Source: Allocoleopsis franciscana PCC 7113
Lineage (GTDB): Bacteria > Cyanobacteriota > Cyanobacteriia > Cyanobacteriales > Coleofasciculaceae
Direction: 5' to 3'
NCBI RefSeq assembly: GCF_000317515.1
Contig: NC_019738.1
Coordinates: forward strand, 1,745,623 to 1,809,622
Length of the DNA: 64,000 nucleotides
Shown: positions 3,001 through 40,409 of the stretch, in pieces
Layout of the letters: each line of letters starts with the position of its first letter
Position numbering within the stretch: the first letter of the stretch is position 1
Notes under the pieces: generated by a model
What the model saw: the letters and a program-made list of their open reading frames with translations, nothing else
Told to the model about the DNA's origin: nothing
Databases searched by the model: none
Position numbers and translations under genes: made by a program

Positions 3001-3786
3001 CGATCTCTTCCCATCGCGGCTCTTTATGATGGTCAACAGTTTCTGGTTGAGAAATATAGCCTTGGCTTGATGCCTAGTCTCAGTCTGATTACTGATACGA
3101 ACTACAAGAGCATTAAAGACTTACAAGTTCTGGCGATGGGAGCGTCAAAATTCCCAGAGAAAAGCCCTTTACCGGCGGTACCTGTCGAGTTATCGCTCAT
3201 TACACCTTCTTTGTGGCAGGGCAAGGCATTCCTGAACGATAACTTTACCCTAGCGAATCTGAAGGAACAACGAGAGCAAAAGCCTTTTGGATTGATTCAC
3301 CTGGCAACCCATGCCACCTTCCGTGCCGGAGCACCAGGCAACTCTTACATTGAATTTTGGGATACGAAGCTACAGCTAGACCAATTGCCTGGGCTAGGTT
3401 GGGGTAATCCACCTGTGGAGTTGTTGGTATTGAGCGCCTGTAAGACAGCGTTGGGAGATCAGCAAGCCGAGTTAGGTTTTGCGGGGTTAGCCGTACAAGC
3501 TGGGGTAAAATCAGCGATCGCATCCCTCTGGTCTGTGAGTGATGAAGGAACTTTAGCCCTCATGACACAGCTATACCAGCAGTTGAAAGTATCACCCATT
3601 AAAGCAGGAGCGCTGCAACAGGCACAAATAGCGATGCTCAGAGGGCAAGTTTCTCTCAAAGAAGGTAAGCTGTTTTCGGGTAAAGAGACTGTACCTTTAC
3701 CACCAGAACTGGTCAAGCTAGGAACCCGGAATTTGACACATCCCTATTTTTGGGCTGGTTTTACGATGATTGGCAGTCCTTGGTAA
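1..3786 (+). CDS. Large secreted protein, 5'-partial: haemagglutinin/TPS-like N-terminal domain, Thr/Pro-rich repeat linker, C-terminal CHAT (caspase-HetF-like) protease domain
   Basis: The ORF is open to the window start. N-terminal Gly/Asn/Thr-rich beta-helix-like sequence (NASLNVPASF...GQINITAVPG) is typical of cyanobacterial 'filamentous haemagglutinin N-terminal domain' proteins. C-terminal region has CHAT hallmarks: LIHLATHATF...ELLVLSACKTALG gives the His/Cys dyad spacing. Cyanobacteria commonly carry haemagglutinin-domain plus CHAT proteins. Confidence 0.8.
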   Translation: MVFGPNASLNVPASFTATTATGIGLDNNQLFSATEPNNYATLVGQPSNFNFATSQTPGAVVNMGQLSVSQGNNLSLVGGTVVSTGQLNAPGGQINITAVPGQSTVLLSAPGNVLSLEVPASEVSTITPSTLPQLLTGSGQSTGLAVNSSGQVELTGSNIPIHNGDVVIKGSVTAQTATVSAQNNLILVESQLQTTGDLNLLAQNTVMVRDTATNPFLAQAGGNLYIQGNYEIDILALNTPYIPPFQSGGNLSFVSDGIISFDSHSQSGGSILFHNLSGGPANVYSYYDPIITSGGNIALGNYTGAALKVDSGGTITAGDITITQPDTLSIPTTDPDYVILTTTPSLILKAAGSINVGNINTSDQSVGDAGHVRLTAQGNITTGDINARDLGAGNAGSVSLLSAGGNIQVENVNTTNLNAGNSGSITMIGAGTVTHGELNWNNFGTGNQASSPVIMQNLGGTNTPPPTGGTTTPPPGGTTPPPGGTTTPPPTGGTTTPPPGGTTPPPGGTTTPTPTGGTTTPTPPGGTTTPPPTGGTTTPPPGGTTPPPGGTTTPPPTGGTTTPPPGGTTTPTPPGGTTTPTPPGGTTTPTPTGGTTTPTPTGGTTTPTPTGGTTTPTPTGGTTTPTPTGGTTTPTPTGGTTTPTPTGGTTTPTPTGGTTTPTPTGGTTTPTPTGGTTTPTPTGGTTTPTPTGGTTTPTPTPTGGSKTTPSSGSTTTTSGDSITTPAGGSKDNASGGSTNSTSNTCLSCTSTDSTVTTPSGIANHQSSATTSTTSRSSTVATSDGSTPNSPNSGGANNPSGQGNTNHVHLGGTSDSPTTSSSPQQLVGNSSSSEVKPNLVSSLEEPLTNQFEQYFGHPDKTPTVTLADARNILRKVEKATGVKPALIYATFVPQRIVANGVSNVSTPDQNSNLETPNSSYQLELVLVTGEGEPIRRQVTGATRENVLQVVYQFQSEVTNAQSGRDYEAPSKQLYQWLIAPLDAEIKARGIQNLSFIMDSGLRSLPIAALYDGQQFLVEKYSLGLMPSLSLITDTNYKSIKDLQVLAMGASKFPEKSPLPAVPVELSLITPSLWQGKAFLNDNFTLANLKEQREQKPFGLIHLATHATFRAGAPGNSYIEFWDTKLQLDQLPGLGWGNPPVELLVLSACKTALGDQQAELGFAGLAVQAGVKSAIASLWSVSDEGTLALMTQLYQQLKVSPIKAGALQQAQIAMLRGQVSLKEGKLFSGKETVPLPPELVKLGTRNLTHPYFWAGFTMIGSPW
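1384..2110 (+). repeat. Near-perfect 27-bp tandem array of about 26 units (ggcggtaccacaactccaacaccaacg and variants) encoding (TTTPTPTGG)n inside the CHAT protein
   Basis: Directly visible in the sequence. The N-terminal units are a PPGG/PPTGG variant and the later units are identical TPTPTGG copies. The repeat also generates three spurious long ORFs on other frames and strands. Confidence 0.95.
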
Positions 3787-18597: not shown

Positions 18598-19584
18598 CAA
18601 TCAACAAACAGCCATTTCTGACACTTTTCATCCGTCAAAACCTAAGAAGTTGGTGGAGATTTAGCCATTTTCTCCACCAACTTTTGATCATCTATTTCTT
18701 AAAACCTATTGCATACAAAGTTTTTGTTGCTCCCGATGATTCCCCCTATATTCATTGGGGGAAATTTACAAAAAAAATTTATAATAGAATTCTCGGATCT
18801 GATCGAAAGTCTCGACAGAAACTTGAATAAAATAAAACAGCTAAAGTTAATCAACTCATTTCAAATCTTATTAATCCCCTATTGGTTACCACGACAAAAT
18901 CTCCCCTTGAAATAAAATATAAACCCCTAACTCCCCTGAGAGTCAGAGGTTTAATTTTATATTCATATAGCCAGCCTAAATGATTGGTGAGTGCCTCTAT
19001 TCTCTCGTCTGCGTCCTGTTGTGTCCTCTGCGGTTCATCAAAAAGGTCTGTCTCACAAATCAACGTTAGGTTTGCTATCGGGTTTTTTCAGCTAGACCCC
19101 TAAACGTCTACTACCTCAGACCGCTCTGATGGGGAGTTTAGTCCCCCTTTGGTAGTAATAAGGTGAAGGAAGCGACAAAAACTTCACACCGTTTCTAGTC
19201 AGCCGTTTATTTGCACCGTCTGTATATCTGACGTCGCTCTCCTCCGATATACAGTTATGGGCCACTGCGGTATAACTCCCAACCGGTACGATTTCTATTC
19301 GCCTACTAGACTTACAAAGATGCCAATTTGCTCTATCGCTCTACAGGCAGAAGAGCTAATAACTGGCAGTCAGCCTAGGGGGACAAACTCAATTTCACTA
19401 CTGTAAATAATGGCACAAAGTAGAATGTTCTTTTCTTACAAGATATAAAGTTTTTCCTGAGAGGCAGGAGCAAATGCAACGATACCGTAACATTTACTCC
19501 TGCCGCAGGATAGATGAACTTCTATTGCAACCTTTTTTATTCGAGCAGACAGCTAGACGGGATCAATGTGAGCTGCCTTGAAAA

Positions 19585-27980: not shown

Positions 27981-30275
27981 ATGGTAATGTCTGACGATAA
28001 GACGCCAAGCGTCTACGAACCACTGACTTCCAGAATTGACAAAGTAAAAGTCTATGCAGCAGGTGCAACGGTTACTCGTGTCGCTGACTTACAGCTAGAC
28101 GCAGGCGAAATCCCAGAACAGGTTGAAATGGCGGGATTACCGCTAGCACTGGATGATAGCAGCGTTCGGGTGCGTGTGGAATCTGCATTGGGCGCGAGTA
28201 CGGCAATTGCCACTGATGTTCGGATTGGTTTAGCGGTTCCCCCACGCCAAGCCGTACAAAATTCACCAACCGATGAGGAGGTGCGGGAAGCGAAGGCTGA
28301 GGTACAACAGCTTGAGGATGCGATCGCTTTAATTGAAAATGAAATCGCCATCCTCTATCAACTAGATGTACCAGAACGCCCCGATGGGGAAGAAGGGAAA
28401 GCTCCCCCGCCTTCGCCTCTGACGGCTAGACTCGCCTTGACGAACTTTAAGGATGAACAAGTTCGTGCCCGCATCACAGAAAAGCGCGAAACGACGGAAA
28501 AGTTACGCCAAGCGCAAGAACATCTCGACGACTTACTGCAAAAACAGGCTCGTGCTTCTAATGCTAAAGAGGTTCGCCCCCATGAGCTTCGCAAGACAGT
28601 CGTTGTTCGGTTAAGTAACGAGGGTGAACCCAGTACCCTTGCAGGGCAAAGGTTAGTTGTAGAGTATTTTGTCCCAGGCGCACGTTGGACACCGACTTAT
28701 ATTTGCCGTTTGGATAGTACGGGAAATCAGGCAACAGTAGCAGTACGAGCCTTAATTTGTCAGCGCACGGGTGAAGATTGGTCGGGAGTCAGCTTGGAAC
28801 TTTCGACGGCTGAACCCCTGTCATGGTGTGAGTTGCCCGAATTGCCCTCTCTACGGCTTGGACGCGCTCAACCCAGGTTAAAAACATCGGGCTGGCGTCT
28901 TCCTCCGGTTGGTGCTGAGATTTTGTTTGAGGATTTTGATCGGCAGAAACAGGTAGCGATTTCTGCTGTATCTGTGCACTCCGTCCTCACGGATATCCCT
29001 TCCCCAAGCGTGCCACCGTTACCCAATTTGGCTGTAGAAGTTCTGAAACATCAGGGAATTGACGCCACACAAGTCCCAAAAAAAATGAGTCAGTCACCCT
29101 TGGACACACAAGAAATCTTTGAGAGAAGTCAGGAACTCCGCAAAGCTTCCTTTTCCCAGCAGAGGAGACGGCAGCGAGTCGAGTTAACAACCGATGAACC
29201 TTCTGCACCACGGGATGAATTTGATATCACCTTGATGTCTCCAGGCATGATCGACGCAGGCGAGTATAGCGGATACGCTGAAAGTATGCCTGCGGCAGCT
29301 CCGGCTGTATTTCGATCCCCTTCTAGACCCAAGACAGCCGCATTCCACGAGTCTCGACAAGCACAAGTGAGGGAAGAGGAAGACGCTTTAACCAATCTCC
29401 TCGCCTATAGCTTAATGCGGATGGGAGCCGCCGATGAACCAACCCAACGCGGTAAGTTGTCGATTGAGCAACGGCAAGAAGTCTATTTAGAAATCCTCAA
29501 ACGCCGGAACGTCGTTGTTAGTTTCAATGTACTCACAATAGTGCAACAGGCTGCAATTGATGCACGCAATTGCATTTATATCAATCTACCTCCCGGTGGA
29601 ATTAATGTGCGACAGGTTGCAGGTTCCTTTGACTATGCCTACAGCGCTGATGGACGTATCGATGTCCCTTCCGATGGTGAATTTCATTCTGTCGCTCTAA
29701 CGAGTAACTCGACAGATGTGGATTTGCGCTATGTGGTGGTACCCCGCGAGGATACCAATGTCTTCCGCATTGCTCAACTCAAGAACCCCTTACAAGCTCC
29801 CCTACTAGCTGGCCCTGCGGATGTGTATGTGGATGGCGAGTATATCTTATCGACTAAGATTACTACAGTGCCACCCAAGGGACAAATGGAGTTAGGTCTA
29901 GGGGTTGAGCAAGCCATCAAAGTAGCCCGGAACACGAGTTATCAGGAAGTTCGTTCCGGTGAAACCCTTGTTGCTTTTAACGAACTGCGCCACAACATTC
30001 AAATTGATATTGCCAACCGTTTACCCAGAGACGCGGCAATTGAGGTACGGGAACGAATTCCCATCCCTGACGCAGATGCCAAGGTTGATGTGCAAATTGA
30101 TCGCGCCTCACCGGAGTGGGAGAAATATGAACAACAAGAACGCGGCATACCGATTCGCGGAGGTTACCGTTGGCGAGTACAAGTGCCAGGGGGAGAGCAA
30201 ACAAAGCTATCAGTACAGTACACAATTAAAACGTTTGTGGATAGTGAGCTAATCGGGGGAAATCGACGGGAATAA
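27981..30275 (+). CDS. DUF4140/DUF4139 (TIGR02231, MuiA-like) family protein carrying a long disordered Pro/Ser/Arg-rich central insertion
   Basis: N-terminal domain (VYAAGATVTRVADLQLDAG...VRV), the conserved central block EYFVPGARWTPTYICRL...CQRTGEDWSGVSLELSTAEP and the C-terminal DUF4139-type beta-rich domain. It is a paralogue of the 31010-32596 product. Confidence 0.6.
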   Translation: MVMSDDKTPSVYEPLTSRIDKVKVYAAGATVTRVADLQLDAGEIPEQVEMAGLPLALDDSSVRVRVESALGASTAIATDVRIGLAVPPRQAVQNSPTDEEVREAKAEVQQLEDAIALIENEIAILYQLDVPERPDGEEGKAPPPSPLTARLALTNFKDEQVRARITEKRETTEKLRQAQEHLDDLLQKQARASNAKEVRPHELRKTVVVRLSNEGEPSTLAGQRLVVEYFVPGARWTPTYICRLDSTGNQATVAVRALICQRTGEDWSGVSLELSTAEPLSWCELPELPSLRLGRAQPRLKTSGWRLPPVGAEILFEDFDRQKQVAISAVSVHSVLTDIPSPSVPPLPNLAVEVLKHQGIDATQVPKKMSQSPLDTQEIFERSQELRKASFSQQRRRQRVELTTDEPSAPRDEFDITLMSPGMIDAGEYSGYAESMPAAAPAVFRSPSRPKTAAFHESRQAQVREEEDALTNLLAYSLMRMGAADEPTQRGKLSIEQRQEVYLEILKRRNVVVSFNVLTIVQQAAIDARNCIYINLPPGGINVRQVAGSFDYAYSADGRIDVPSDGEFHSVALTSNSTDVDLRYVVVPREDTNVFRIAQLKNPLQAPLLAGPADVYVDGEYILSTKITTVPPKGQMELGLGVEQAIKVARNTSYQEVRSGETLVAFNELRHNIQIDIANRLPRDAAIEVRERIPIPDADAKVDVQIDRASPEWEKYEQQERGIPIRGGYRWRVQVPGGEQTKLSVQYTIKTFVDSELIGGNRRE

Positions 30276-30345
30276 CAGAGACTTTCCCCAAATACTTGAC
30301 CGAATGTGTTGAACAAAAATCGAGCATCTACTAGGGACATTCGCT

Positions 30346-30990
30346 ATGCAGTCGGAACACCTACAACAAATCATGGATTATTACATTGAGGATGCTCAAA
30401 ACCATCTTGCTATCATTGAGCAGCATTTGTTGAAGTTGCAAAGTACGATTGAAGACCCAGAAATTGTGAGTGAGTTATTCCGCGCTGCACGTTGCGGAAT
30501 TGTTGGCGGAGCTAACTTGCTACCCATCAGTAGCTTTTATATCAACAGCATTCATAAAACGGGCTTTTGCTTAGTCGATTGTTTAAAAGTCATTCAGCAA
30601 CAGGGTTCGATCAAGATTGACCAAAAGCTAAAAGACCTATTAATGCAGGTATTTTACCGCCTCAAATCATTAATTGAACAATTGCGACAACCTTCTAACT
30701 TAAAGGATGATCAGGCTAAGCAAGTAATATCAGAAATTGAGCCAATTCGAGCAGCACTAATAGCACACCTTCATGGATTAAGCCATCAATCAGGAGGTAT
30801 GAATCGGCAAGAAATCGCCCTAACGAAGTGCTGTAATGTTAGCGACATGACCTTACAAGAGTCAGCACATATCGCATCCGAATTGGACGATGACATTCCC
30901 TCCCTAGAAGAGTTGGAATCACTCTTTGATGAACTCTTCCTCGATAGTTCTTGCGCTAATGTAGCCCCCATCAGTCAGGACGAACTGTAA
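30346..30990 (+). CDS. Hypothetical all-helical protein with a degenerate HPt-like segment (ELFRAARCGIVGGANLL)
   Basis: 214 aa between the two DUF4139 paralogues with 19-bp spacing to the next gene. The segment resembles the HPt/CheA-P1 block LFRAAHTIKGSAGM, but the phospho-accepting His is replaced by Arg. Confidence 0.45.
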   Translation: MQSEHLQQIMDYYIEDAQNHLAIIEQHLLKLQSTIEDPEIVSELFRAARCGIVGGANLLPISSFYINSIHKTGFCLVDCLKVIQQQGSIKIDQKLKDLLMQVFYRLKSLIEQLRQPSNLKDDQAKQVISEIEPIRAALIAHLHGLSHQSGGMNRQEIALTKCCNVSDMTLQESAHIASELDDDIPSLEELESLFDELFLDSSCANVAPISQDEL

Positions 30991-31009
30991 TCCAGAGGAA
31001 ACAATATTA

Positions 31010-32596
31010 ATGATGCAAGCCATTGGGCAATCGCCAAACACCATTCAACAACTCACTCTCGATGCACCTGTAGCTACAGTCACGCTCCTAGAAGACCGTG
31101 CCTTAGTGCGGCGAGTGGGTCAAGTTAACCTAACACAAGGATTATGGCGAATTAAAGTCGAGAACGTTGCGCCCGTACTTTCTGATAAATCCCTACGTGC
31201 CGAGTTTACTGGAGACTATTCAGGGGCAAGAATAGACGATGTTCGCGTTCGCCGCCAGATGCGGGTGTTGGAAGAGGAACGATCCGAAGAAATTAAAGGC
31301 TTGCTGGCAGAATTGCGATCGCTGCAAAACACCTTCAACCATCTTACCGAAGACCGCCAACATCAAGAGTATTCCTTTGAGCAAGTCGGCACCATCTTGG
31401 CGCATAGTTTGCAGGAACTCCCCATCGATGCCGTTTGGGGACAACTCGACCCGAAATCCTGGCGCGACCAATTTCAAACCCTATTTAAGCAGTTGCGCGA
31501 ACTGCGTACCGAAATTTTAAACGGTTATCACAATCAGGAAAAGTTAAGGGAGCTCCTTAATGACTTAGGCACCCGAATCCGCGCCCTGTCCAGCCCTGAA
31601 CTACTCTACACTGCCCACATCGAAGCCGATTTAATGGTGAATCAAGCAGGAGAGTATGCCATTGCTTTCGACTACGTGGTTCCTAATGCCATGTGGCGAC
31701 CGTGGCACCAAGCCCGTTTGCTGTTAGAAGAAAAGCCCTCTCTCTCCTTTCGCGTCGATGGTTGTGTATGGCAACGCACTGGCGAAGATTGGAAGAATGT
31801 GGATTTAGTCTTTTCCACTGCCCGTGCTTCCCTGGGCACCGAACCCCCCTTACTTGCCGATGACCCGTTAAATGTGCGGGAAAAATCCAAACAAATCATC
31901 ATTGAAACCCGCGACCAAAAAATTCAAACCACTGGACTCGGTGCAGGTGCAACACCGGGTACTGTTGAGCTACCGGGTGTGGATGACGGCGGTGAAGTCC
32001 GCAACCTACGACCCGCCAGTAAAGCGACGATTCCCTCTGATGGTCGTCCCTACCGTGTTCCCATCTTCTCCTTCTCCTCAGAAGCGGAGGTGGAGTATGT
32101 TTTGATGCCAGAACTGTCTTGTCAGGTTGTCCTTAAAAGCGAGCAGACCAATACCGCCCAATTCCCCATTCTGGCAGGGCCAGTGGATTTAGTGCGCTCA
32201 TCCGAGTTTGTCGGCAAGACATCGGTCGGATTTATTGCACCCGGAGAGAAGTTTGCCTTGGGATGGGGGCCAGATGGGGCAATGCGTGTGCAACGCACTA
32301 CAACCCAGAAAAGAAAACAAGACCATCTCACCAAGTGGAATACCGTCACAACCACGATTGAGTTATTTATCTCGAATATTGGAGCAGAGTCAAGGACGAT
32401 TAAAACCACAGAACGCGTACCCGTTTCAGAGTTGGAACAGGTGAAGGTAGAAGTGATTGCCCAAAAAACGACAGACGGCGTCCAACCAGATGAGAATGGC
32501 TTCTGTACGTGGCATTTCACCCTAGAACCCTACTCTCAACTTCAGGTTACTTTAGTCTATAAAGTCTCAGCCGCACCAGAGGTTCAAGGCTTCTAA
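31010..32596 (+). CDS. DUF4140/DUF4139 (TIGR02231, MuiA-like) family protein, canonical length
   Basis: Shares the conserved block DYVVPNAMWRPWHQARL...WQRTGEDWKNVDLVFSTARA with the 27981-30275 product. Coiled-coil middle section. Confidence 0.65.
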   Translation: MMQAIGQSPNTIQQLTLDAPVATVTLLEDRALVRRVGQVNLTQGLWRIKVENVAPVLSDKSLRAEFTGDYSGARIDDVRVRRQMRVLEEERSEEIKGLLAELRSLQNTFNHLTEDRQHQEYSFEQVGTILAHSLQELPIDAVWGQLDPKSWRDQFQTLFKQLRELRTEILNGYHNQEKLRELLNDLGTRIRALSSPELLYTAHIEADLMVNQAGEYAIAFDYVVPNAMWRPWHQARLLLEEKPSLSFRVDGCVWQRTGEDWKNVDLVFSTARASLGTEPPLLADDPLNVREKSKQIIIETRDQKIQTTGLGAGATPGTVELPGVDDGGEVRNLRPASKATIPSDGRPYRVPIFSFSSEAEVEYVLMPELSCQVVLKSEQTNTAQFPILAGPVDLVRSSEFVGKTSVGFIAPGEKFALGWGPDGAMRVQRTTTQKRKQDHLTKWNTVTTTIELFISNIGAESRTIKTTERVPVSELEQVKVEVIAQKTTDGVQPDENGFCTWHFTLEPYSQLQVTLVYKVSAAPEVQGF

Positions 32597-32969: not shown

Positions 32970-33239
32970 ATGGCAACTTATGCAATTACCGGATTAACTT
33001 ATCTAGAAATTAAAACATTAATTCAATCTCTAAACGCTCTTCACTGGGAGACCGATTACACAGAGTTTTGTCGAATCTTAGGCTTAAGTGAAGGTACATC
33101 CTATAGCTTGCAGAAATATACCGAGTTTGAAGAGTTGTGCAAAGCCTTGAACAACTTTAATATTCCTACACTCCTGAAGCTGATAGAGGCAGGTGCAATG
33201 GCTGACCAACAACCCAAGAGCGTCAGTCTCTTGGATTGA
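32970..33239 (+). CDS. Hypothetical 89-aa protein
   Basis: ORF only; no recognisable domain. Confidence 0.3.
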   Translation: MATYAITGLTYLEIKTLIQSLNALHWETDYTEFCRILGLSEGTSYSLQKYTEFEELCKALNNFNIPTLLKLIEAGAMADQQPKSVSLLD

Positions 33240-33380: not shown

Positions 33381-33794
33381 ATGTGCCTAGCACTTGTTGT
33401 AGACGACGACCCCACACAACAACTCATCATCTCCAAACTGCTCAAAAAGATTGGGCTAGATGTCATTGTGGCAAATGATGGCATCGAAGCCCTAGAGCGA
33501 GTTCAATCTACCTCTCCAGTCCTCGTAATTTTAGATATTCTGATGCCCCGGATGAATGGCTATGAGGTTTGTCAACGCCTGAAGTCGAATGAAAAAACTC
33601 AGCATTTGCCGGTGTTAATGTATTCTGGGCAAGAACAAGAGTTTAAGGCATTGATGAAGGGGAATAAGTCGGGAGCTGATGCTTACCTCTCTAAGCTTTC
33701 TCATCCTCAAGAACTGATCAACGCCATTTATCAGTTGTTACCCAAAAAAAAGAAATCTTTACCTGAGATTGAACCCATTAGAGTTTTTAAATGA
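33381..33794 (+). CDS. Stand-alone response regulator receiver (CheY-like)
   Basis: LVVDDDPTQQ...VILDILMPRMNGYEVCQRLK...PVLMYSGQ...ADAYLSKL has the DD, D (phospho-acceptor), T/S and K positions of REC domains. Start taken at MCLALV rather than the upstream extension at 33243. Confidence 0.8.
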   Translation: MCLALVVDDDPTQQLIISKLLKKIGLDVIVANDGIEALERVQSTSPVLVILDILMPRMNGYEVCQRLKSNEKTQHLPVLMYSGQEQEFKALMKGNKSGADAYLSKLSHPQELINAIYQLLPKKKKSLPEIEPIRVFK

Positions 33795-33863: not shown

Positions 33864-36260
33864 CTACTTTGCCATCAATTCTGTCACTTGCTGTAATAAC
33901 TGTAAAGGTTCGACAGGTTTAAGCAAGTAATCATCAATAAAAGCACTAAGTTCGTCCTCTTGGTCTTCAGTAATGGTGGACGTGGTTAAAGCGAGAATTT
34001 TGATTTGTTGAGTAGAAGGGGAGTTACGTAGACAATGGGTGACCTCATAACCATCCATTCCCCGTAATTGCCAATCGACAATGACAACATTGGGTTGAAG
34101 CAATTCAATCTGCTGGAAGGCTGTGGAACCATCAATCAACCAAACCACATGATAACCAGCGGCGGTGAGAATTTCGCAGATCGATGTTGCACTTTCTTCC
34201 TGATCTTCCACTAAGACAATACTGCCTTGAACAATAAAATTGTTCTTTTGAAGAGCAGCTTCTCTCATAGAAGTAGAAGACGTTAAAGGTTGATTGGGCA
34301 ACCAAACCGTAAAAAAAGAACCCTGACCCACTACAGATTCAACTTCAATTCGGCCTCCATGGAGTTCTACCAATTGTTTCGTCAACGCTAAACCCAGACC
34401 GGTTCCTTCATAGTTACGTTGATATACCGTTTCTAACTGCTGAAACTTTTGAAACAGTAAGGGTATGTGTTCTTCTGCAATACCGATACCCGTGTCTTCA
34501 ACTTGAAAGACAACCCAATTCTGCTCTCGCCAGATTCGTAGAATCACCTTACCCCCTGAGGGAGTAAATTTGATGGCATTGCCTAAGAGATTAAACAGAA
34601 TTTGCTTAACCCGGCGTTGATCGGCACAAAAGCGATCTTCCTGCCGCCGTGTGCCGTTCATACTTTGTGATTTAACTTGCAAATCCATTTCCAACTTGAG
34701 TTGGCGAAGGTCTGCTTTTTCCTGAAAAGTTCTGATTGTTTGGTGAGCCAAGTTATTTAGAGAAAACTCGCTAATGTTCAAAATAGCTTTCCCTGCCTCA
34801 ACTTGAGACAAATCCAAAATATCGTTAATTAGCTCTAATAAATGTTCCCCACTCTCTTGAATCGTTTTCAAATAGCGTCGCTGTTTGTGCAGAGGAACTT
34901 GTTGTGTACCTTCTTGACCAAAAGACCAGCGTAACAGCGTCGCCGACATTCCAATCACACAGGTCAAAGGCGTCCGTAATTCATGACTCATTGTAGCCAG
35001 AAATTCACTCTTAGCTCGATCAGCCGCTTGAGCCGCTTGTAAGATATCACGAAGTTCTTGTGTGCGCTCGATCACCCGTTGTTCAAGGGTCGTTTTTTGC
35101 TGCTGTAACTGAGCATACAACTGGGCTTGGTGAATGGCGACAGCCAGATGTTCTGCAATCTGTTTGAGAAATATTTTTTCATTTTCCAGCCAATGGCGCG
35201 GCTGAAAACACTGGTTGGCAATGAGTAAACCCCATAACTTTTCCTGAACGATAATGGGTGTAACCAACTTAGCGCGAACCTGATAACGTCGCATCAGCTC
35301 TAAGATGCAAGAAGAATCTGGGTAAGCGGCTTCGACATCATCAATACTTAAAGTTAGCCCTTGGCGATATTTTGTTCTGCAATTCGGTACCTGAAGTAAA
35401 CAATCTTCCTTTTCCACCAAATTCAGGACGGAAGAAATTGCATCGGAAGCTTTAGCTTCGTAGGTAACACGACCCCAGTAAACGGTAGAGTTAAGGATCG
35501 ACCCTTGAGAGGTAAGACGTAAATTTAATGATTCTGTCTTGTCTTGTGTTGAGGGAATGTTATCTGGGTAGATGGCAGAGACACAATTGAATTCATCAAA
35601 TTGATAGATTAACAGTCGATCAACCTGAAGAAAATTTCGCAATTGCTCAACGGCTGTTTCCAGAATGACCGGTAACTCTAGGCTTTGGCGAATTTGGGTG
35701 GTAACCTGATTCAGGAGTCGTTCCTGCTCAATCTGTTGGCATAGTGCCTCGTCAACCAAGGGCTGACAAACGGCTACAGGGCAATGGGCCGAGTCACTCA
35801 TTTCGCCAGAAGCCAAGATTTCCAGCAATGAGAGTGTAAATTCAGTCTGAAGGGTTGGATCATTGGTTCGCAGACGAGTCTGGGATTGATGTAGCGTATC
35901 CAAGGCAATAGGAGGATGGCTAGCATGACGACTCAGTTGGGTGAGGAAGGAGGCGATCGCCTTCGGCTCGAAGGTCAACCCAACCTGATACAATCTCGAC
36001 TGACCGTCATATCCAGCCACCGAGTCTGGCTCTTGTGGTTCCCCGACTAGCAGTACACTGAATCGTAATGACAGCAGAACAGCAAACCGCTGAGTCTCAA
36101 ATTCTGGAGGCGTTGCACTCTTAGATAGACTCTTCTCGTCGGTCAGGAGTAAAGCTTCCTCACCGAGTCTAGACTTCATCTGCTTTAATAGGTCTTGCAG
36201 CCGCTCAAACATAGCCAATGGCAACGTTCGGCTGAATCTTGGATCACCCAGTATAGGCAT
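33864..36260 (-). CDS. Hybrid sensor histidine kinase (N-terminal sensory region, GAF, HisKA, HATPase_c and C-terminal receiver)
   Basis: H-box SHELRTPLTCVIGMS, N/G boxes (LLGNAIKFTP, DTGIGI, GTGLGLALTKQLVELHGGRIEVES) and a C-terminal REC (IVLVEDQEE...VIVDWQLRGMDGYEV). Confidence 0.9.
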   Translation of the reverse strand: MPILGDPRFSRTLPLAMFERLQDLLKQMKSRLGEEALLLTDEKSLSKSATPPEFETQRFAVLLSLRFSVLLVGEPQEPDSVAGYDGQSRLYQVGLTFEPKAIASFLTQLSRHASHPPIALDTLHQSQTRLRTNDPTLQTEFTLSLLEILASGEMSDSAHCPVAVCQPLVDEALCQQIEQERLLNQVTTQIRQSLELPVILETAVEQLRNFLQVDRLLIYQFDEFNCVSAIYPDNIPSTQDKTESLNLRLTSQGSILNSTVYWGRVTYEAKASDAISSVLNLVEKEDCLLQVPNCRTKYRQGLTLSIDDVEAAYPDSSCILELMRRYQVRAKLVTPIIVQEKLWGLLIANQCFQPRHWLENEKIFLKQIAEHLAVAIHQAQLYAQLQQQKTTLEQRVIERTQELRDILQAAQAADRAKSEFLATMSHELRTPLTCVIGMSATLLRWSFGQEGTQQVPLHKQRRYLKTIQESGEHLLELINDILDLSQVEAGKAILNISEFSLNNLAHQTIRTFQEKADLRQLKLEMDLQVKSQSMNGTRRQEDRFCADQRRVKQILFNLLGNAIKFTPSGGKVILRIWREQNWVVFQVEDTGIGIAEEHIPLLFQKFQQLETVYQRNYEGTGLGLALTKQLVELHGGRIEVESVVGQGSFFTVWLPNQPLTSSTSMREAALQKNNFIVQGSIVLVEDQEESATSICEILTAAGYHVVWLIDGSTAFQQIELLQPNVVIVDWQLRGMDGYEVTHCLRNSPSTQQIKILALTTSTITEDQEDELSAFIDDYLLKPVEPLQLLQQVTELMAK

Positions 36261-36425: not shown

Positions 36426-39400
36426 ATGCACCGTATCGCCGCAACGCCAGGAGGGTGGAACCCTCAAGCCGAAGGCGTCATTTTCATTGAACAGTCAGCA
36501 GCACCCATCGTTTTCCTTACAGCAGCGGACACAGATATTCAGACTCTGGCAGCATCAACATCTCAATTGCCAGTGGGTTTCCCTGGGCTACGGGTAGTCA
36601 ATCTGTTGCAGTTGCAGCAGCAACTCACAATTGATACCTATGCAGAAAATGTCTTATCGTCTGCTCAGATCATTATTTTACGGGTCTTGGGCGGACGTGC
36701 CTACTGGTCTTATGGATTAGAAGTGGTGCTAGACACGGTGCAGCAAACGAGTGCTGCCTTGATTGTGTTGCCTGGAGATGACCGCCCCGACCCCGATCTC
36801 ATGAGTCACTCTACAGTATCACTGACCGTGGTGAATCAGGTCTGGCGCTATCTCACGGAAGGGGGCGTTGAGAATTTTGTAAACGCCCTTAAATTTGTGG
36901 CGGATGTCTGTCTGGAGCAAACTTATCATCCACCCGCGCCAAAACCTGTGCCTCGTGTTGGGCTTTATTCCTGGGGAATTGGGAAGGGGGACAAGGGGGA
37001 CAAGGGGGACAAGGGTGATAATTCTCTCTCTCGCCTTCCTCATCCAAAATCCAAAATCCAAAATCTAAAATCCAAAGTTGGGATTCTGTTCTACCGTGCT
37101 CATTACTTGGCGGGAAACTTATCACCTATTGATGCACTTTGTCAAGCTTTAGCTAAACGACAGTTGGAACCTGTACCTATATTTGTCTCTTCGTTACGTG
37201 ACTCAGATGTGCAAGCAGAATTGTTGACGTATTTTCAGCCCAAAGAGGGTTTTGGAATTGACCTGTTACTGAATACAACTAGTTTTTCTCTAGCGAAATT
37301 GAACGCGGAAACCCCTCAGTTGGAGTTGTGGAAGCGTCTGGATGTGCCCGTGTTGCAGGTTATCTTCAGTAGCGGCACGGTGGAACAGTGGGATTCGCAG
37401 TTTCAGGGACTTACAGCCCGTGATACGGCGATGAATGTAGCACTGCCAGAGGTGGATGGGCGTATCATCAGCCGTGCGGTTTCGTTTAAGTCGGTGCAAT
37501 CCTGGAACCCTGATTTGGAAACCGATGTGGTAGTTTATGAGCCGGTGCCTTGTCGGATTAATTTTGTCGCTGATTTAGCCGCGAGTTGGGTACAATTACG
37601 GCAAACCCCACCCCCTGAACGACGCATTGCTCTGATTTTGGCTAATTATCCGAATCGTGATGGACGCCTTGCTAATGGTGTGGGATTGGATACGCCGGCT
37701 AGCTGTGTGGAGATTCTGAAGGGGTTGCAGCAGGCAGGTTATCGGGTTGAGGATATTCCGGAAACGGGGGATGAGTTGATTGGACGGCTGACGGCTGGGG
37801 TGACGAATGATCCGGAAGGGCGGGATTTTCGCTTGGTGCGGCAGGAGTTGTCTTGGGAAGAGTATGGGGAGTATTTTGAGGGGTTGCCTGCGGAGGTTCA
37901 CAAAGGAATAGGCGATCGCTGGGGAAATCTTGAGCAGAGGACTGAAAATCCTCGTGTCCCATTCCCTATTTCAGGAATTCAGTTGGGGAATGTGTTTGTT
38001 GGGATTCAGCCGTCGCGTGGGTATGATGTTGACCCTAGTTTGAATTATCATGCGCCGGATTTGGAGCCGACTCATGCTTATCTGGCGTTTTATTATTGGC
38101 TGCGGCAGCATTTTGGAATGCAGGCGGTGGTGCATGTGGGGAAGCATGGAAATCTAGAGTGGTTGCCGGGTAAAAGTGTGGCGCTGTCGGGTAAGTGTTA
38201 TCCAGAGGTGGCGTTGGGGGCAATGCCTCATTTATATCCGTTTATTGTGAATGATCCGGGTGAGGGGTCTCAGGCAAAGCGTCGTTCGCAAGCGGTGATT
38301 ATTGACCACTTGACACCGCCGATGACTCGTGCACAGTTGTATGGCCCGTTGCAAAAGTTAGAAGGATTGATGGATGAGTATTATGAGGCGCAAAGTTTAG
38401 ATCCGAAGCGATTGGGTGTGATTAGCGATCGCATTACTCAACTGATCATCCAAGAAAATCTCCACCAAGATTTAGGAATCGAAACGGACGAAATCCAAAA
38501 CCCAGATTCTAATATTCAAAATCGGATTGATGGCTACCTTTGTGAGTTAAAGGAAGCCCAAATTCGAGATGGTCTTCATATTTTTGGACATTGTCCCGAT
38601 GGGCGTCAATTGCGAGATTTAATTGTAGCGATTGCCCGTCATCCAAGTCATGATCGTATCGGTTTAACTCGTGCTTTAGCTGAGGATTTGGGATGGGATT
38701 TCGACCCACTTACGGCTGATTTGTCAGGAGTAGGGGATAATAATTACCGCACGATTGGGGACATGGTTGAAGCACTTGAACAACAAGCGGCTGAATTGGT
38801 AGAACAACTGATCCAAAATCAGATCCCCCCCTTACTAAGGGGGGATAGCGTAGGCAGGGGGTTAGGAGAGGCAAGCAAACGAGAATTAGAATGGATATGC
38901 GATCGCCTCTTGCCTTCTCTGCAACAAACTAACCAAGAAATTACCCAGTTATTACGAGGATTGGATGGGCGATATATCGAAAGTGGGCCATCTGGTGCAC
39001 CAACACGAGGACGCCCAGAAGTCTTACCCACAGGACGCAACTTTTATTCCGTTGATATTCGTGCGATTCCCACAGAAACAGCTTGGGCGGTGGGACGAAA
39101 GGCGGCTGAAGTATTAATTGAACGCTATACCCAAGAAAATGGTGAATATCCCAAAACATTAGGACTCTCAGTTTGGGGAACCTCAACCATGCGTACTGGC
39201 GGTGATGATTTAGCGGAGGCATTAGCTTTATTGGGGGTTCAACCCATTTGGGATTATCCTTCGCGTCGAGTGGTGGATTTTGAAATCTTGCCTGTGTCAG
39301 TTTTGGGGCGTCCTCGTGTGGATGTAACGTTGCGAATTTCTGGCTTTTTCCGCGATGCTTTTCCGAACTTAATTAGTTTATTTGACCAAGCGGTTGCAGC

Positions 39401-40409
39401 CGTTGCCGCTTTGGCTGAACCGCCGGAGGATAATCCTTTAGCTGCCCAAGTTCAGCAAGAAGCCGAGATGTGGCTATCCCAAGGGTTGAGTCAGGAAGAG
39501 GCAAATGTGCGATCGCGCTATCGGATCTTTGGTTCTAAACCCGGTGCTTATGGGGCTGGATTACAAGGTTTAATTGAATCTCAAAATTGGACAGATGAGC
39601 AAGATATCGCCCGCGCTTATATTAATTGGAGTAGTTACGCCTACACGAGTAGCCCCCCTAGGGCGTGTTTTCAAACTTCCCCGCAAAATTCAGATCCCCC
39701 CCTGCCCTCCTTAACAAGGGGGGAGAATTCAATCAAAGTCCCCCTTAAAAAGGGGGATTTAGGGGGATCTCCGGGTTTGAAAGCAGACTCCAACCCTCTG
39801 GGTGGACTAGGGGGGGTAGCCGCACCTGAAGCCTTTAATCAACGTTTGAAACAGATGCAAGTTGTACTGCACAACCAGGATAACCGGGAACACGATTTGC
39901 TAGATTCTGATGATTATTACCAATTCCAAGGGGGTTTAACGGCGGCGGTGCGGGCTTTAACGGGCAAGAATCCCACCATCTATTTTGGCGATCATTCCAT
40001 TCCTGAAAACCCGAAAGTTCGGCAACTCCGAGAAGAAATTGCACGAGTCTATCGTTCTCGTGTTGTCAATCCGAAGTGGATTGAAGGGGTAATGCGGCAC
40101 GGTTACAAAGGTGCGTTTGAAATGTCAGCTACCGTTGATTACTTATTCGCATACGATGCCACGACTACTTGTGTAGAAGACTATATGTATCAAGGTGTAG
40201 CCGAGGCATATTTATTCGACTCAAAGGTACAGGAATTTATCCAACAAAAGAATCCTTGGGTTTTGCGAGATATGGCTGAACGATTGCTGGAAGCCAATCA
40301 ACGAGGGTTATGGAAAGAAGTGAAGGGGGAAGTTTTGGAAGAATTAAGAGCGATCGCGTTGCAAGCGGAGGCGGTGATTGAAGGGACTCATGATCAATCT
40401 TTGAGGTAA
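36426..40409 (+). CDS. cobN: Cobaltochelatase subunit CobN (CobN/Mg-chelatase H family), carrying several in-frame repeat insertions
   Basis: 1327 aa with family-typical N-terminus (IFIEQSAAPIVFLTAADTDIQTLA), central GLDTP...ANYPNRDGRLANGVGLDTPAS and C-terminal blocks. Extra low-complexity segments (GDKGDKGDKGD, HPKSKIQNLKSK, IPPLLRGDSVGRGLG, and about 55 aa at 39650-39830) coincide with repeat DNA. Confidence 0.9.
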   Translation: MHRIAATPGGWNPQAEGVIFIEQSAAPIVFLTAADTDIQTLAASTSQLPVGFPGLRVVNLLQLQQQLTIDTYAENVLSSAQIIILRVLGGRAYWSYGLEVVLDTVQQTSAALIVLPGDDRPDPDLMSHSTVSLTVVNQVWRYLTEGGVENFVNALKFVADVCLEQTYHPPAPKPVPRVGLYSWGIGKGDKGDKGDKGDNSLSRLPHPKSKIQNLKSKVGILFYRAHYLAGNLSPIDALCQALAKRQLEPVPIFVSSLRDSDVQAELLTYFQPKEGFGIDLLLNTTSFSLAKLNAETPQLELWKRLDVPVLQVIFSSGTVEQWDSQFQGLTARDTAMNVALPEVDGRIISRAVSFKSVQSWNPDLETDVVVYEPVPCRINFVADLAASWVQLRQTPPPERRIALILANYPNRDGRLANGVGLDTPASCVEILKGLQQAGYRVEDIPETGDELIGRLTAGVTNDPEGRDFRLVRQELSWEEYGEYFEGLPAEVHKGIGDRWGNLEQRTENPRVPFPISGIQLGNVFVGIQPSRGYDVDPSLNYHAPDLEPTHAYLAFYYWLRQHFGMQAVVHVGKHGNLEWLPGKSVALSGKCYPEVALGAMPHLYPFIVNDPGEGSQAKRRSQAVIIDHLTPPMTRAQLYGPLQKLEGLMDEYYEAQSLDPKRLGVISDRITQLIIQENLHQDLGIETDEIQNPDSNIQNRIDGYLCELKEAQIRDGLHIFGHCPDGRQLRDLIVAIARHPSHDRIGLTRALAEDLGWDFDPLTADLSGVGDNNYRTIGDMVEALEQQAAELVEQLIQNQIPPLLRGDSVGRGLGEASKRELEWICDRLLPSLQQTNQEITQLLRGLDGRYIESGPSGAPTRGRPEVLPTGRNFYSVDIRAIPTETAWAVGRKAAEVLIERYTQENGEYPKTLGLSVWGTSTMRTGGDDLAEALALLGVQPIWDYPSRRVVDFEILPVSVLGRPRVDVTLRISGFFRDAFPNLISLFDQAVAAVAALAEPPEDNPLAAQVQQEAEMWLSQGLSQEEANVRSRYRIFGSKPGAYGAGLQGLIESQNWTDEQDIARAYINWSSYAYTSSPPRACFQTSPQNSDPPLPSLTRGENSIKVPLKKGDLGGSPGLKADSNPLGGLGGVAAPEAFNQRLKQMQVVLHNQDNREHDLLDSDDYYQFQGGLTAAVRALTGKNPTIYFGDHSIPENPKVRQLREEIARVYRSRVVNPKWIEGVMRHGYKGAFEMSATVDYLFAYDATTTCVEDYMYQGVAEAYLFDSKVQEFIQQKNPWVLRDMAERLLEANQRGLWKEVKGEVLEELRAIALQAEAVIEGTHDQSLR
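36981..37080 (+). repeat. Intragenic short tandem repeats in cobN: 9-bp (ggggacaag)x3 followed by a heptanucleotide STRR-like array (ccaaaat x4-5)
   Basis: Directly visible: aagggggacaagggggacaagggggacaagg then tccaaaatccaaaatccaaaatctaaaatccaaag. The reading frame is retained. Confidence 0.9.
38821..38870 (+). repeat. G/C-rich palindromic mini-repeat (agatcccccccttactaaggggggatagcgtaggcagggggttagg) inserted in frame in cobN
   Basis: Hairpin C7-TT-act-AA-G6 followed by aGGGGGtta. Same family as 39691-39817 and 56107-56166. Confidence 0.8.
39691..39817 (+). repeat. Composite of two or three G/C-rich palindromic mini-repeats inserted in frame in cobN
   Basis: cagatcccccccctgccctccttaacaagggggg..., then cccccttaaaaaggggg, then atttagggggatctccggg, then ctagggggggtagc. 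Each is a short hairpin with C5-7 and G5-7 arms. Confidence 0.8.

Follow-up and report, generated by a model that had tools for sequence, protein, structure and literature searches.

The stretch analysed here, referred to throughout as the window, is a 64-kb segment of the genome of Allocoleopsis franciscana PCC 7113, and our subject is a run of three genes within it, which we call A, B and C (Mic7113_1528-1530; Table 1). All three lie on the plus strand, with spacers of 70 bp between A and B and 19 bp between B and C; the open reading frames (ORFs) and spacers are exactly as an earlier, sequence-only reading of the window had given them. A and C are already annotated publicly as members of the DUF4139/MuiA family. 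B, a 214-aa protein encoded between them, is a 'hypothetical protein' at NCBI and an 'HPt domain-containing protein' (HPt, histidine phosphotransfer) in UniRef, and no mention of the three genes was found in the literature searched. A stand-alone CheY-like receiver (REC), a convergent hybrid histidine kinase and a CobN-like protein are encoded further downstream. A scan for promoters and terminators at A-B-C gave signals at or below shuffle expectation and defined no operon boundary. A defence-system identity for A, B, C and the 89-aa ORF that follows them was considered and dropped, as PADLOC returned zero matches for all four.

Predicted fold and dismantled active site of B

On its predicted structure and its alignments, B is a pseudo-HPt protein: it has the fold of the CheA phosphotransfer domain P1 without the acceptor histidine. 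The AlphaFold model, made with 32 homologues, consists of five helices over residues 1-149 (pLDDT >90) followed by a disordered linker and a short C-terminal helix. In a Foldseek search with this model, CheA P1 chains accounted for eight of the ten best matches, with TM-scores on the target of 0.48-0.80; for chains consisting of P1 only (3kyi, 3kyj, 8c5v, 1i5n, 1tqg) the range was 0.69-0.80 at probability 1.0. The P1 structures matched by B were 3kyi and 3kyj (CheA3-P1 with CheY6), 8c5v, 2lp4, four chains of 1i5n, and 1tqg. Alignment by hhalign with P1 of E. coli CheA gave 94% probability and set R49 of B opposite H48. B itself has no direct match to Pfam Hpt (PF01627). It contains the segment FRAARCGIVGGANLL, and the sequence-only reading had compared it to the HPt/CheA-P1 motif with the active histidine replaced by arginine. 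Both parts of that comparison are borne out: the model is all-helical, Foldseek and hhalign point to CheA P1, and R49 occupies the site in the hhalign and family alignments alike.

In the family alignment the site reads A-R-C-G-I-V-G-G, with R49 nearly invariant. When the two families are aligned with each other, the entire P1 tetrad is seen to be replaced, H48, K51, H67 and E70 of CheA corresponding to R49, V53, F74 and V77 of B. An equivalence of H70 in B with CheA H67 was rejected, as the family alignment puts F74 there. From these substitutions we infer that B cannot carry or relay phosphate. Beyond the helical bundle, a variable linker of ~35 residues leads to a C-terminal peptide that is acidic and amphipathic (SLEELESLFDELFLD; consensus in the family SLEDLESLIDELSLD) and for which a helix is predicted at residues 187-201 with low confidence. 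One other affiliation was considered for B: the top matches of a phmmer search against the PDB were engineered tyrosyl-tRNA synthetases (E ~1e-3, residues 89-143 of B). These were dismissed as short helical matches with per-domain E values of 1.6-16, the assignment to CheA P1 being backed by both fold and profile evidence.

Origin of B from the first HPt domain of a pilus kinase

A search of 1.84 billion representative proteins with the B-family profile yielded 569 matches, most of them to the N-terminal ~150 residues of proteins of 1,600-2,500 aa (E ~1e-40). These giant proteins have the architecture Hpt, ~1,200-aa linker, H-kinase_dim, HATPase_c, CheW, REC, and their N-termini are Pfam-Hpt-positive. 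One such giant CheA (locus L029) is encoded together with a PatA-type response regulator, a 121-aa CheY, CheW and a methyl-accepting chemotaxis protein (MCP); this is the hmpA-E / pilG-L arrangement seen in chemosensory systems of cyanobacterial type IV pili. B is 39-49% identical over 145-150 residues to the first HPt domain (HPt1) of seven sampled kinases, the closest reaching 47-49%. By homology, B is a duplicate, now free-standing, of the first HPt (P1) domain in a giant CheA of the ChpA/HmpE/PilL type, which controls type IV pilus motility. The best-preserved element is helix A, in which 17 of 33 positions are common to the B family and giant-kinase HPt1, and the GGA turn is conserved between the two. 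Additional features of B relative to the kinase domain are an inserted C50, a six-residue loop insertion, conserved C75 and C79, and the motif D97-x3-Q101.

The two groups also differ in the residue at the phosphorylation site. Histidine is found in all 118 giant kinases (118/118), and in the stand-alone family the site is occupied by R (40), K (4), N or S; the relatives and the fusion proteins described below have mostly K, N, S, F or a gap. Among peptide-bearing stand-alone relatives all tetrads are degenerate (RVFV, KKQE, KNRE, SISR, HTGK, NTCK), and one such relative (P0288) keeps the histidine, with K, H and E lost. Conversely, none of the short sequences with an intact HKHE tetrad carries the acidic C-terminal peptide, nor do the giant kinases, and the peptide is present in essentially all full-length degenerate stand-alone HPt1-like proteins. 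Since the peptide strictly co-occurs with a degenerate tetrad, B belongs to a definable family, that of stand-alone degenerate HPt1 domains with an acidic C-terminal peptide. B is single-copy per genome, and the B tree is not separated by genomic context. The matches listed in the pseudo-HPt literature all concern plants and include no bacterial stand-alone family; pseudo-HPt proteins of this kind, stand-alone, bacterial and with a defined signature, seem not to have been described as a family before.

The DUF4139 pair

A and C both match the NCBIfam model TIGR02231, 'mucoidy inhibitor MuiA family' (209.4 and 266 bits; curated cutoff 112.6), and Pfam DUF4139 (A, E 1e-32, 113.7 bits; C, E 9e-33, 114.2 bits; cutoff 31.8 bits). 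In each, DUF4139 is preceded by DUF4140 (A, residues 22-124, E 5e-15, 56.1 bits; C, residues 24-120, E 3e-15, 57 bits; cutoff 27). With 26-29% identity the two are distant paralogues, and they have in common the block (F/Y)xVPxAxWxP...QRTGEDWxxVxLxxSTA. The assignment to DUF4139/TIGR02231, which had first been made from this same block, therefore holds by profile matches above curated cutoffs. A disordered insertion of ~200 aa had also been proposed for A, and this stands in part: A has ~260 extra residues relative to C, and a tract of ~150 is indeed variable and of low complexity, but its flanks are conserved among A orthologues. In the A-type proteins of two distant cyanobacteria, a 9.3-Mb Coleofasciculaceae-type genome (L031:4920-7310) and Scytonema sp. 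UIC 10036 (L036:122-2476), this loop carries a helix-hairpin-helix domain resembling the C-terminal domain of the RpoA alpha subunit (Pfam RNA_pol_A_CTD); the A protein of the window does not have it.

The predicted structure of C consists of an N-terminal beta-sandwich (residues 13-84), an antiparallel coiled-coil hairpin of ~100 residues (93-193), a beta-domain (200-269), a loop (272-330) and a C-terminal beta-sandwich (339-521). A follows the same domain plan, its larger insert sitting where C has the loop. No solved structure resembling C was found beyond its coiled coil. The loop, poorly modelled as it is, is among the most conserved parts of the protein across cyanobacteria (LGTEPPLL..., PGVDDGGEVRNLR), with invariant columns at S274, L275, G276, P279-L282, G309, V324, D326-G328, V330 and R331, and it may fold only on a partner. 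The beta-sandwich body, the 100-residue coiled-coil hairpin and the conserved, unmodelled loop together suggest that the DUF4139 pair is a protein-binding scaffold rather than an enzyme. A, B and C all lack a signal peptide and a transmembrane segment and are all acidic, so they appear to be cytoplasmic, which makes the 'envelope' role once considered for this locus unlikely. No functional literature on DUF4139, DUF4140 or TIGR02231 was found beyond MuiA. PF13598 also occurs in a kinome paper on A. fumigatus, apparently as a mis-cited accession within a list of histidine-kinase domains, and was set aside.

Distribution of the gene order

The B alignment recovered 22 loci, one per genome and all from Coleofasciculaceae-type cyanobacteria, which were surveyed by mapping the window proteins onto them and by inspection of ORFs. 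A-B-C is present in seven genomes (the window, L001, L003, L004, L007, L012 and L031), the B proteins of which are 50-89% identical to that of the window. REC and the convergent kinase follow in five of the seven (the window, L001, L003, L007, L031), and CobN comes next in the four whose contigs extend far enough (the window, L001, L007, L031). The order DUF4139, helical protein, DUF4139, REC, kinase, for which the sequence-only reading had looked to cyanobacteria in general, is thus confined to a narrow Coleofasciculaceae-type clade. In nine other loci (L009 and L013-L020) B is followed by a different receiver, REC120 (see below), and A and C are not nearby. L008 and L011 have the order NanE, B, a 398-aa multi-pass membrane protein, kinase, CobN, with no A, C, 89-aa ORF or REC (L008:7923-9815), and L021 has a 180-aa C-terminal remnant of A directly before B, with REC120 ~2.4 kb downstream of B. 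These three look like decayed A-B-C loci that have retained B. In five loci B stands in unrelated surroundings, and a relative with K at the site comes after a PAS-GAF kinase.

The DUF4139 genes are far more widely distributed. A search with C gave 1373 matches, the 120 listed being 59-94% identical and ranging from Pseudanabaena to Scytonema. Of the 14 C-bearing loci examined, 11 have an A orthologue 5' of C, either adjacent or split from it by B or by an unrelated insert (L030); among the further loci sampled by way of C orthologues, an A-type gene precedes C in seven of nine. A comes directly before C in Pseudanabaena, in Oscillatoria princeps, in a 7.6-Mb genome, in Scytonema and in the fusion locus L024; in L031 B lies between them, and in L030 (Coleofasciculus sp. 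FACHB-SPT9) an unrelated two-gene insert does. In Oxynema and Leptolyngbya the gene upstream of C is not a recognisable A. Apart from L031, none of the seven further A-C loci has B, REC or the kinase. As A and C adjoin without B elsewhere and A-B-C is found in seven genomes, the conserved core is the A-C two-gene unit, present in most of the cyanobacterial loci sampled, and B is a lineage-specific insertion into it. The presence of unrelated genes in FACHB-SPT9 means that the A-C gap can take insertions, and it seems to be a recurrent insertion site. The insert there (L030:7131-7971) comprises the gene of a 189-aa DUF6193 protein, the N-terminus of which has a hydrophobic segment, and a small ORF of 85 aa that consists of two halves almost identical to each other, NPVDYSAFA...PLSVNGEG(V/I)GVRFQ.

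No recurrent neighbour of the A-C pair was found across the ten contexts examined. The A-C pair of Oscillatoria princeps has a CheW-CheR-CHASE3/HAMP-MCP cluster and a PatX gene 0.7-5 kb upstream, on the opposite strand (L025:1-3517), and a CheB gene stands at the edge of the fusion locus L024. Chemotaxis genes were dropped as candidate recurrent neighbours, as these two cases are not repeated elsewhere and may be due to chance.

Fusion of a second His-less HPt1 to C

Two C-type proteins from metagenomes or metagenome-assembled genomes (MAGs), P0070 (698 aa) and P0072 (697 aa), carry an HPt-like domain at their N-terminus, and one of these fusions was verified on a contig (L024), where it lies directly behind an A-type gene. 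The fused domain is 50-57% identical to giant-kinase HPt1 and only 36-38% identical to B; the histidine position is F or a gap, or S, and the acidic peptide is absent. The simplest reading of these alignments is that a His-less copy of HPt1 was recruited to a DUF4139 C protein a second time, independently of B. We regard this fusion as the strongest argument that a physical relationship lies behind the arrangement A-B-C. A metagenome scan with the fused HPt-like domain gave one further convincing locus only (L032), apparently P0072's own contig, as both are 7,454 bp long, and a protein search with it gave no match at E <=1e-10, probably owing to a word-index limit.

The neighbouring receiver and hybrid kinase

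A receiver and a convergent kinase had been placed immediately downstream of C. Both are indeed there by Pfam matches, with the 89-aa ORF separating C from the receiver gene. This ORF has no family match in Pfam or NCBIfam scans; tblastn finds counterparts in L001 (93% identity) and L003 (73%) and none in L007, and in L031 an 81-aa gene occupies its position.

The window REC matches Pfam Response_reg (E 7e-24, 84.5 bits), and its start is most likely M47 (33381), as in its orthologues. It shares 57% identity with the 121-aa CheY encoded at the hmp/pil locus L029 and, within what is a small comparison set, only 27-36% with the REC120 group, the PatA-type response regulator, the giant CheA REC and the hybrid-kinase REC. 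By these identities it is a duplicate of the CheY of the pilus pathway (PilH/HmpB type). A scan of window ORFs, which was not exhaustive, found no CheW, MCP or CheA among those examined, which marks the REC as a satellite paralogue rather than the pathway's own CheY. Compared with E. coli CheY it keeps D12, D13, D57, S87, Y106 and K109, and should therefore be phosphorylatable; L stands in place of P110. Further changes are KGNKSGA for WGMKQGA in the alpha4-beta5 region and a basic tail (KKKK) at the C-terminus. These changes, namely K109-L in place of the near-universal K109-P110, the altered WGMKQGA and the basic tail, are also present in the L003 and L031 orthologues. This suggests that the output face of the PilH-like REC has been altered.

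In about ten other genomes B is followed, ~400 bp on, by REC120, a different 120-aa receiver that is 47-52% identical to the hmp CheY. Altogether B adjoins a PilH-like REC in ~15 of 24 loci, by way of two different REC paralogues, as would be expected if an interacting HPt1-CheY pair had been duplicated and kept together. The hybrid kinase stays next to CobN in L008 and L011, near B, where A, C and REC are absent, and CobN orthologues adjoin it in every related locus reaching that far. The kinase belongs with CobN rather than with A and C, and is a possible phosphodonor.

Table 1. Features of the A-B-C locus and its surroundings (window coordinates).
Feature	Position	Strand	Size or residues	Basis and remarks
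A, long DUF4140+DUF4139 (MuiA/TIGR02231) paralogue	27981-30275	+	764 aa; Mic7113_1528	Pfam, NCBIfam
Variable low-complexity loop of A	28935-29390	+	~residues 319-470	rich in S/A/P/E/R/Q; unalignable between conserved flanks
B	30346-30990	+	214 aa; Mic7113_1529	
Predicted pseudo-HPt domain of B (degenerate CheA-P1 type)	30346-30792	+	residues 1-149	AlphaFold, Foldseek, hhalign, profile matches
C-terminal acidic amphipathic peptide of B	30901-30945	+	residues 186-200	conserved in family alignment
C, short DUF4140+DUF4139 (MuiA/TIGR02231) paralogue	31010-32596	+	528 aa; Mic7113_1530	Pfam, NCBIfam
Loop of C, candidate partner-binding segment	31823-31999	+	residues 272-330	pLDDT 29-36, yet sequence-conserved
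ORF between C and REC, acidic	32970-33239	+	89 aa	membership uncertain
Stand-alone CheY-like receiver, PilH/HmpB-type paralogue	33381-33794	+	137 aa from M47	ORF opens 33243
Convergent hybrid kinase, N-terminal region-GAF-HisKA-HATPase_c-REC	33864-36260	-		Pfam; neighbour, membership not established
CobN-like (CobN/Mg-chelatase-type) protein, beyond hybrid kinase	36426-40409			GDKGDKGDKGD tripeptide-repeat insertion, residues ~186-200

Elsewhere in the window, the small RNA CyVA-1 (Rfam RF02965) has a full-length match at 19213-19289 on the minus strand (81.8 bits; gathering score 41.4), and a 1,260-aa ORF entering from the edge (4-3786, plus strand) has a two-partner secretion (TPS) domain fragment at its start and a CHAT protease-like C-terminus. 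L027 and L036 have CHAT-domain genes in the vicinity of B or C homologues as well, which is probably coincidental.

A possible role for B and its alternatives

We favour, tentatively, the reading that B is a non-phosphorylatable adaptor or decoy that links a CheY-like receiver to the DUF4139 pair. The P1-like bundle of B would dock the receiver, the neighbouring PilH paralogue being the likeliest partner, and the tethered C-terminal peptide would make a second contact, most likely to an A/C complex; the receiver's alpha4-beta5-alpha5 face is an alternative target. The peptide may also resemble known CheY-binding peptides such as the N-terminus of FliM and the C-terminus of CheZ. A/C is favoured as its target because covalent fusion to C would be an alternative solution to the same problem in another lineage. 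In this way the phosphorylation state of a CheY of pilus-chemosensory type, with phosphate coming from the giant CheA or the adjacent hybrid kinase, would be coupled to the DUF4139 heterocomplex. Another lineage would have made the link permanent by fusing a separately derived His-less HPt1 to the N-terminus of C. Taken as a whole, this proposal has in our judgement somewhat less than an even chance of being right. If B is such an adaptor, it probably works with a PilH-like REC, and we lean, with less assurance, towards its working with A/C.

Several observations weigh against this proposal. The fusion is rare, being known from two protein clusters, both from metagenomes or MAGs, and the giant CheA of this genome, with the rest of its hmp/pil cluster, lies outside the window. 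B is away from A and C in ~16 of 24 genomes; neither L008 nor L011, which keep it, has A, C or REC in the vicinity, and in L021 A survives only as a remnant. The A-C gap of Coleofasciculus FACHB-SPT9 is filled by unrelated genes, and most of the other cyanobacterial loci sampled show A and C without an HPt-like partner or a recurrent signalling neighbour beside them. Finally, the partner that we assign to the C-terminal peptide is a guess.

B might instead be a decoy of the AHP6 kind, a competitive inhibitor of a phosphorelay, with A and C unrelated to it and its position between them the result of an accidental insertion. Its possible targets would be the receiver of the adjacent hybrid kinase, that of the giant CheA, or the PilH-like CheY. 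Pseudo-HPt inhibitors are established in plants, and B has a complete HPt fold without the phosphotransfer residues. Its distribution points the same way: it is found more often beside a PilH-like REC or a kinase than beside A/C, it stays near the hybrid kinase without A/C in L008 and L011, and the A-C gap takes unrelated genes. A decoy placed there by accident is harder to reconcile with the retention of A-B-C in seven genomes, among which B is only 50-89% identical to the window's, or with the covalent joining of a second, independently derived His-less HPt1 to C, and a simple decoy model leaves the conserved C-terminal peptide without a role. We consider this explanation unlikely, though it deserves to be taken seriously.

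The arrangement could also be a chance or lineage-specific juxtaposition in which A/C, B, REC and the kinase are independent genes. The spacers of 70 and 19 bp on a single strand argue against this, as do the HPt1::C fusion and the fact that B and REC are paralogues of known partners, the CheA HPt and CheY, and meet as neighbours through two PilH-like REC paralogues. On the other side, only a narrow clade has the full gene order, and A/C, B and the kinase-CobN pair are each found separately elsewhere. The large genomes of filamentous cyanobacteria are moreover crowded with two-component genes, so that signalling neighbours are to be expected by chance, and promoter or terminator signals that would mark out an operon do not rise above background. 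On balance we think mere juxtaposition improbable.

Another option is that B uses an HPt scaffold to act as an auxiliary phosphatase like CheZ or to bind CheY~P, with D97-x3-Q101 presented on helix D and the tethered acidic peptide capturing the phosphorylated PilH-like receiver. The C-terminal peptide of CheZ and the N-terminal peptide of FliM capture CheY~P in this manner. Nearly all members of the B family have D97 and Q101, where HPt1 of the giant kinases has S and R; a linker followed by an amphipathic acidic C-terminal peptide is a CheZ-like layout, and adjacency of B and REC is frequent. LESLIDEL may also bear a likeness to 'VDDLLDSL' of CheZ and 'EIDALL' of FliM. Searches of Pfam, NCBIfam and the PDB and with Foldseek, however, found no sequence or fold match to CheZ, CheC/X or Spo0E, the D-x3-Q motif is short and could be due to chance, and HPt domains normally turn a face other than helix D towards receivers, as complexes of P1 with CheY such as 3kyj illustrate. 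A CheZ-like function accordingly strikes us as quite improbable. We give hardly any credence to the idea that B is still a phosphotransfer protein using a non-canonical acceptor such as C50 or H20: R49-C50 is nearly invariant, C75 and C79 are conserved nearby, one fusion has Ser at the site and the Ser- and Thr-bearing 'Xpt' domains of Pseudomonas ChpA offer a precedent, but the acceptor-activating K51, H67 and E70 are all replaced by hydrophobic residues, and the site residue varies in the peptide-bearing family (R, K, S, N, once H), which argues against a conserved acceptor chemistry.

Comparison with known systems

HPt1 of the ChpA/HmpE/PilL/PixL-type CheA proteins has the same five-helix P1 fold as B, with clear homology and a conserved helix A and GGA turn. 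It differs in forming the N-terminus of a kinase of 1,600-2,500 aa and in having an intact H/K/H/E tetrad, whereas B is a free-standing protein of 214 aa with R/V/F/V. Plant pseudo-HPt proteins (Arabidopsis AHP6 and the rice PHPs) likewise combine the HPt fold with loss of the acceptor histidine, and AHP6-type proteins are expected to bind receivers without phosphotransfer and thereby to modulate the phosphorelay. That B may bind receivers too is supported indirectly by its conserved helix A and its adjacency to REC. B has an independent origin, from CheA P1 and not from an AHP-type HPt; unlike the plant proteins it has also lost the supporting K/H/E, and it has an extra, putative docking peptide and a genomic link to DUF4139. 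The 'Xpt' (Spt/Tpt) domains of P. aeruginosa ChpA have Ser or Thr instead of His. They too are HPt-like, His-less and part of a pilus chemosensory CheA, and one fusion described here likewise has Ser; however, they are internal to the kinase, while B and the fusion domains are detached from it and tied to DUF4139, genomically or covalently.

The REC of the window resembles PilH/PixH/HmpB in its 57% identity to the hmp/pil CheY and in its retained pocket residues, and differs from them in being encoded outside a CheW/MCP/CheA cluster and in its P110L change, altered alpha4-beta5 region and basic tail. In cyanobacterial pilus chemosensory systems, PixH/PilH CheY-like proteins act as antagonists or phosphate sinks (PMC11181946). 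For A and C the point of comparison is the TIGR02231 namesake, MuiA of Pseudomonas aeruginosa (PA1494), which has the same DUF4140+DUF4139 architecture. MuiA is reportedly periplasmic; A and C, unlike it, form a pair of paralogues that lack signal peptides. Encoded by a single gene, MuiA belongs to the envelope-stress regulon of the sigma factor SbrI and is associated with alginate inhibition, reduced swarming and more biofilm (PMC10418997).

Implications

Three elements of this work appear to be new: the description of B as a catalytically dead, stand-alone copy of a pilus-CheA HPt1 with a family-defining C-terminal peptide, the identification of the neighbouring REC as a PilH paralogue, and the attachment of His-less HPt1 domains to the DUF4139 pair on two occasions. 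Two independent attachments of a dead HPt1, together with a co-duplicated CheY, provide a testable hypothesis that ties DUF4139 to pilus motility signalling. The B family would extend to bacterial chemosensory systems the use of 'dead' signalling domains as adaptors or decoys.

TIGR02231/DUF4139 proteins are widespread, occurring in bacteria, nematodes, fungi and kinetoplastids. DUF4139 is very strongly conserved in cyanobacteria, C being 59-94% identical across orders among the matches listed. We know of no mechanism for any member of the DUF4139/MuiA family, and the association described here is a first functional lead, still circumstantial. More speculatively, the A/C heterocomplex might recognise the pair formed by an HPt1 domain and CheY and belong to the chemosensory pathway of type IV pili (Hmp/Pil/Tax) as an accessory or an output not recognised so far. 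In some lineages dedicated dead copies of HPt1, joined to C or else free and equipped with a docking peptide, would serve it by recruiting a PilH-like CheY according to its phosphorylation state. We think this wider scheme doubtful as it stands. If it is true, A and C as an output of the Hmp/Pil/Tax pathway would give the first mechanistic handle on a family known only through P. aeruginosa MuiA.

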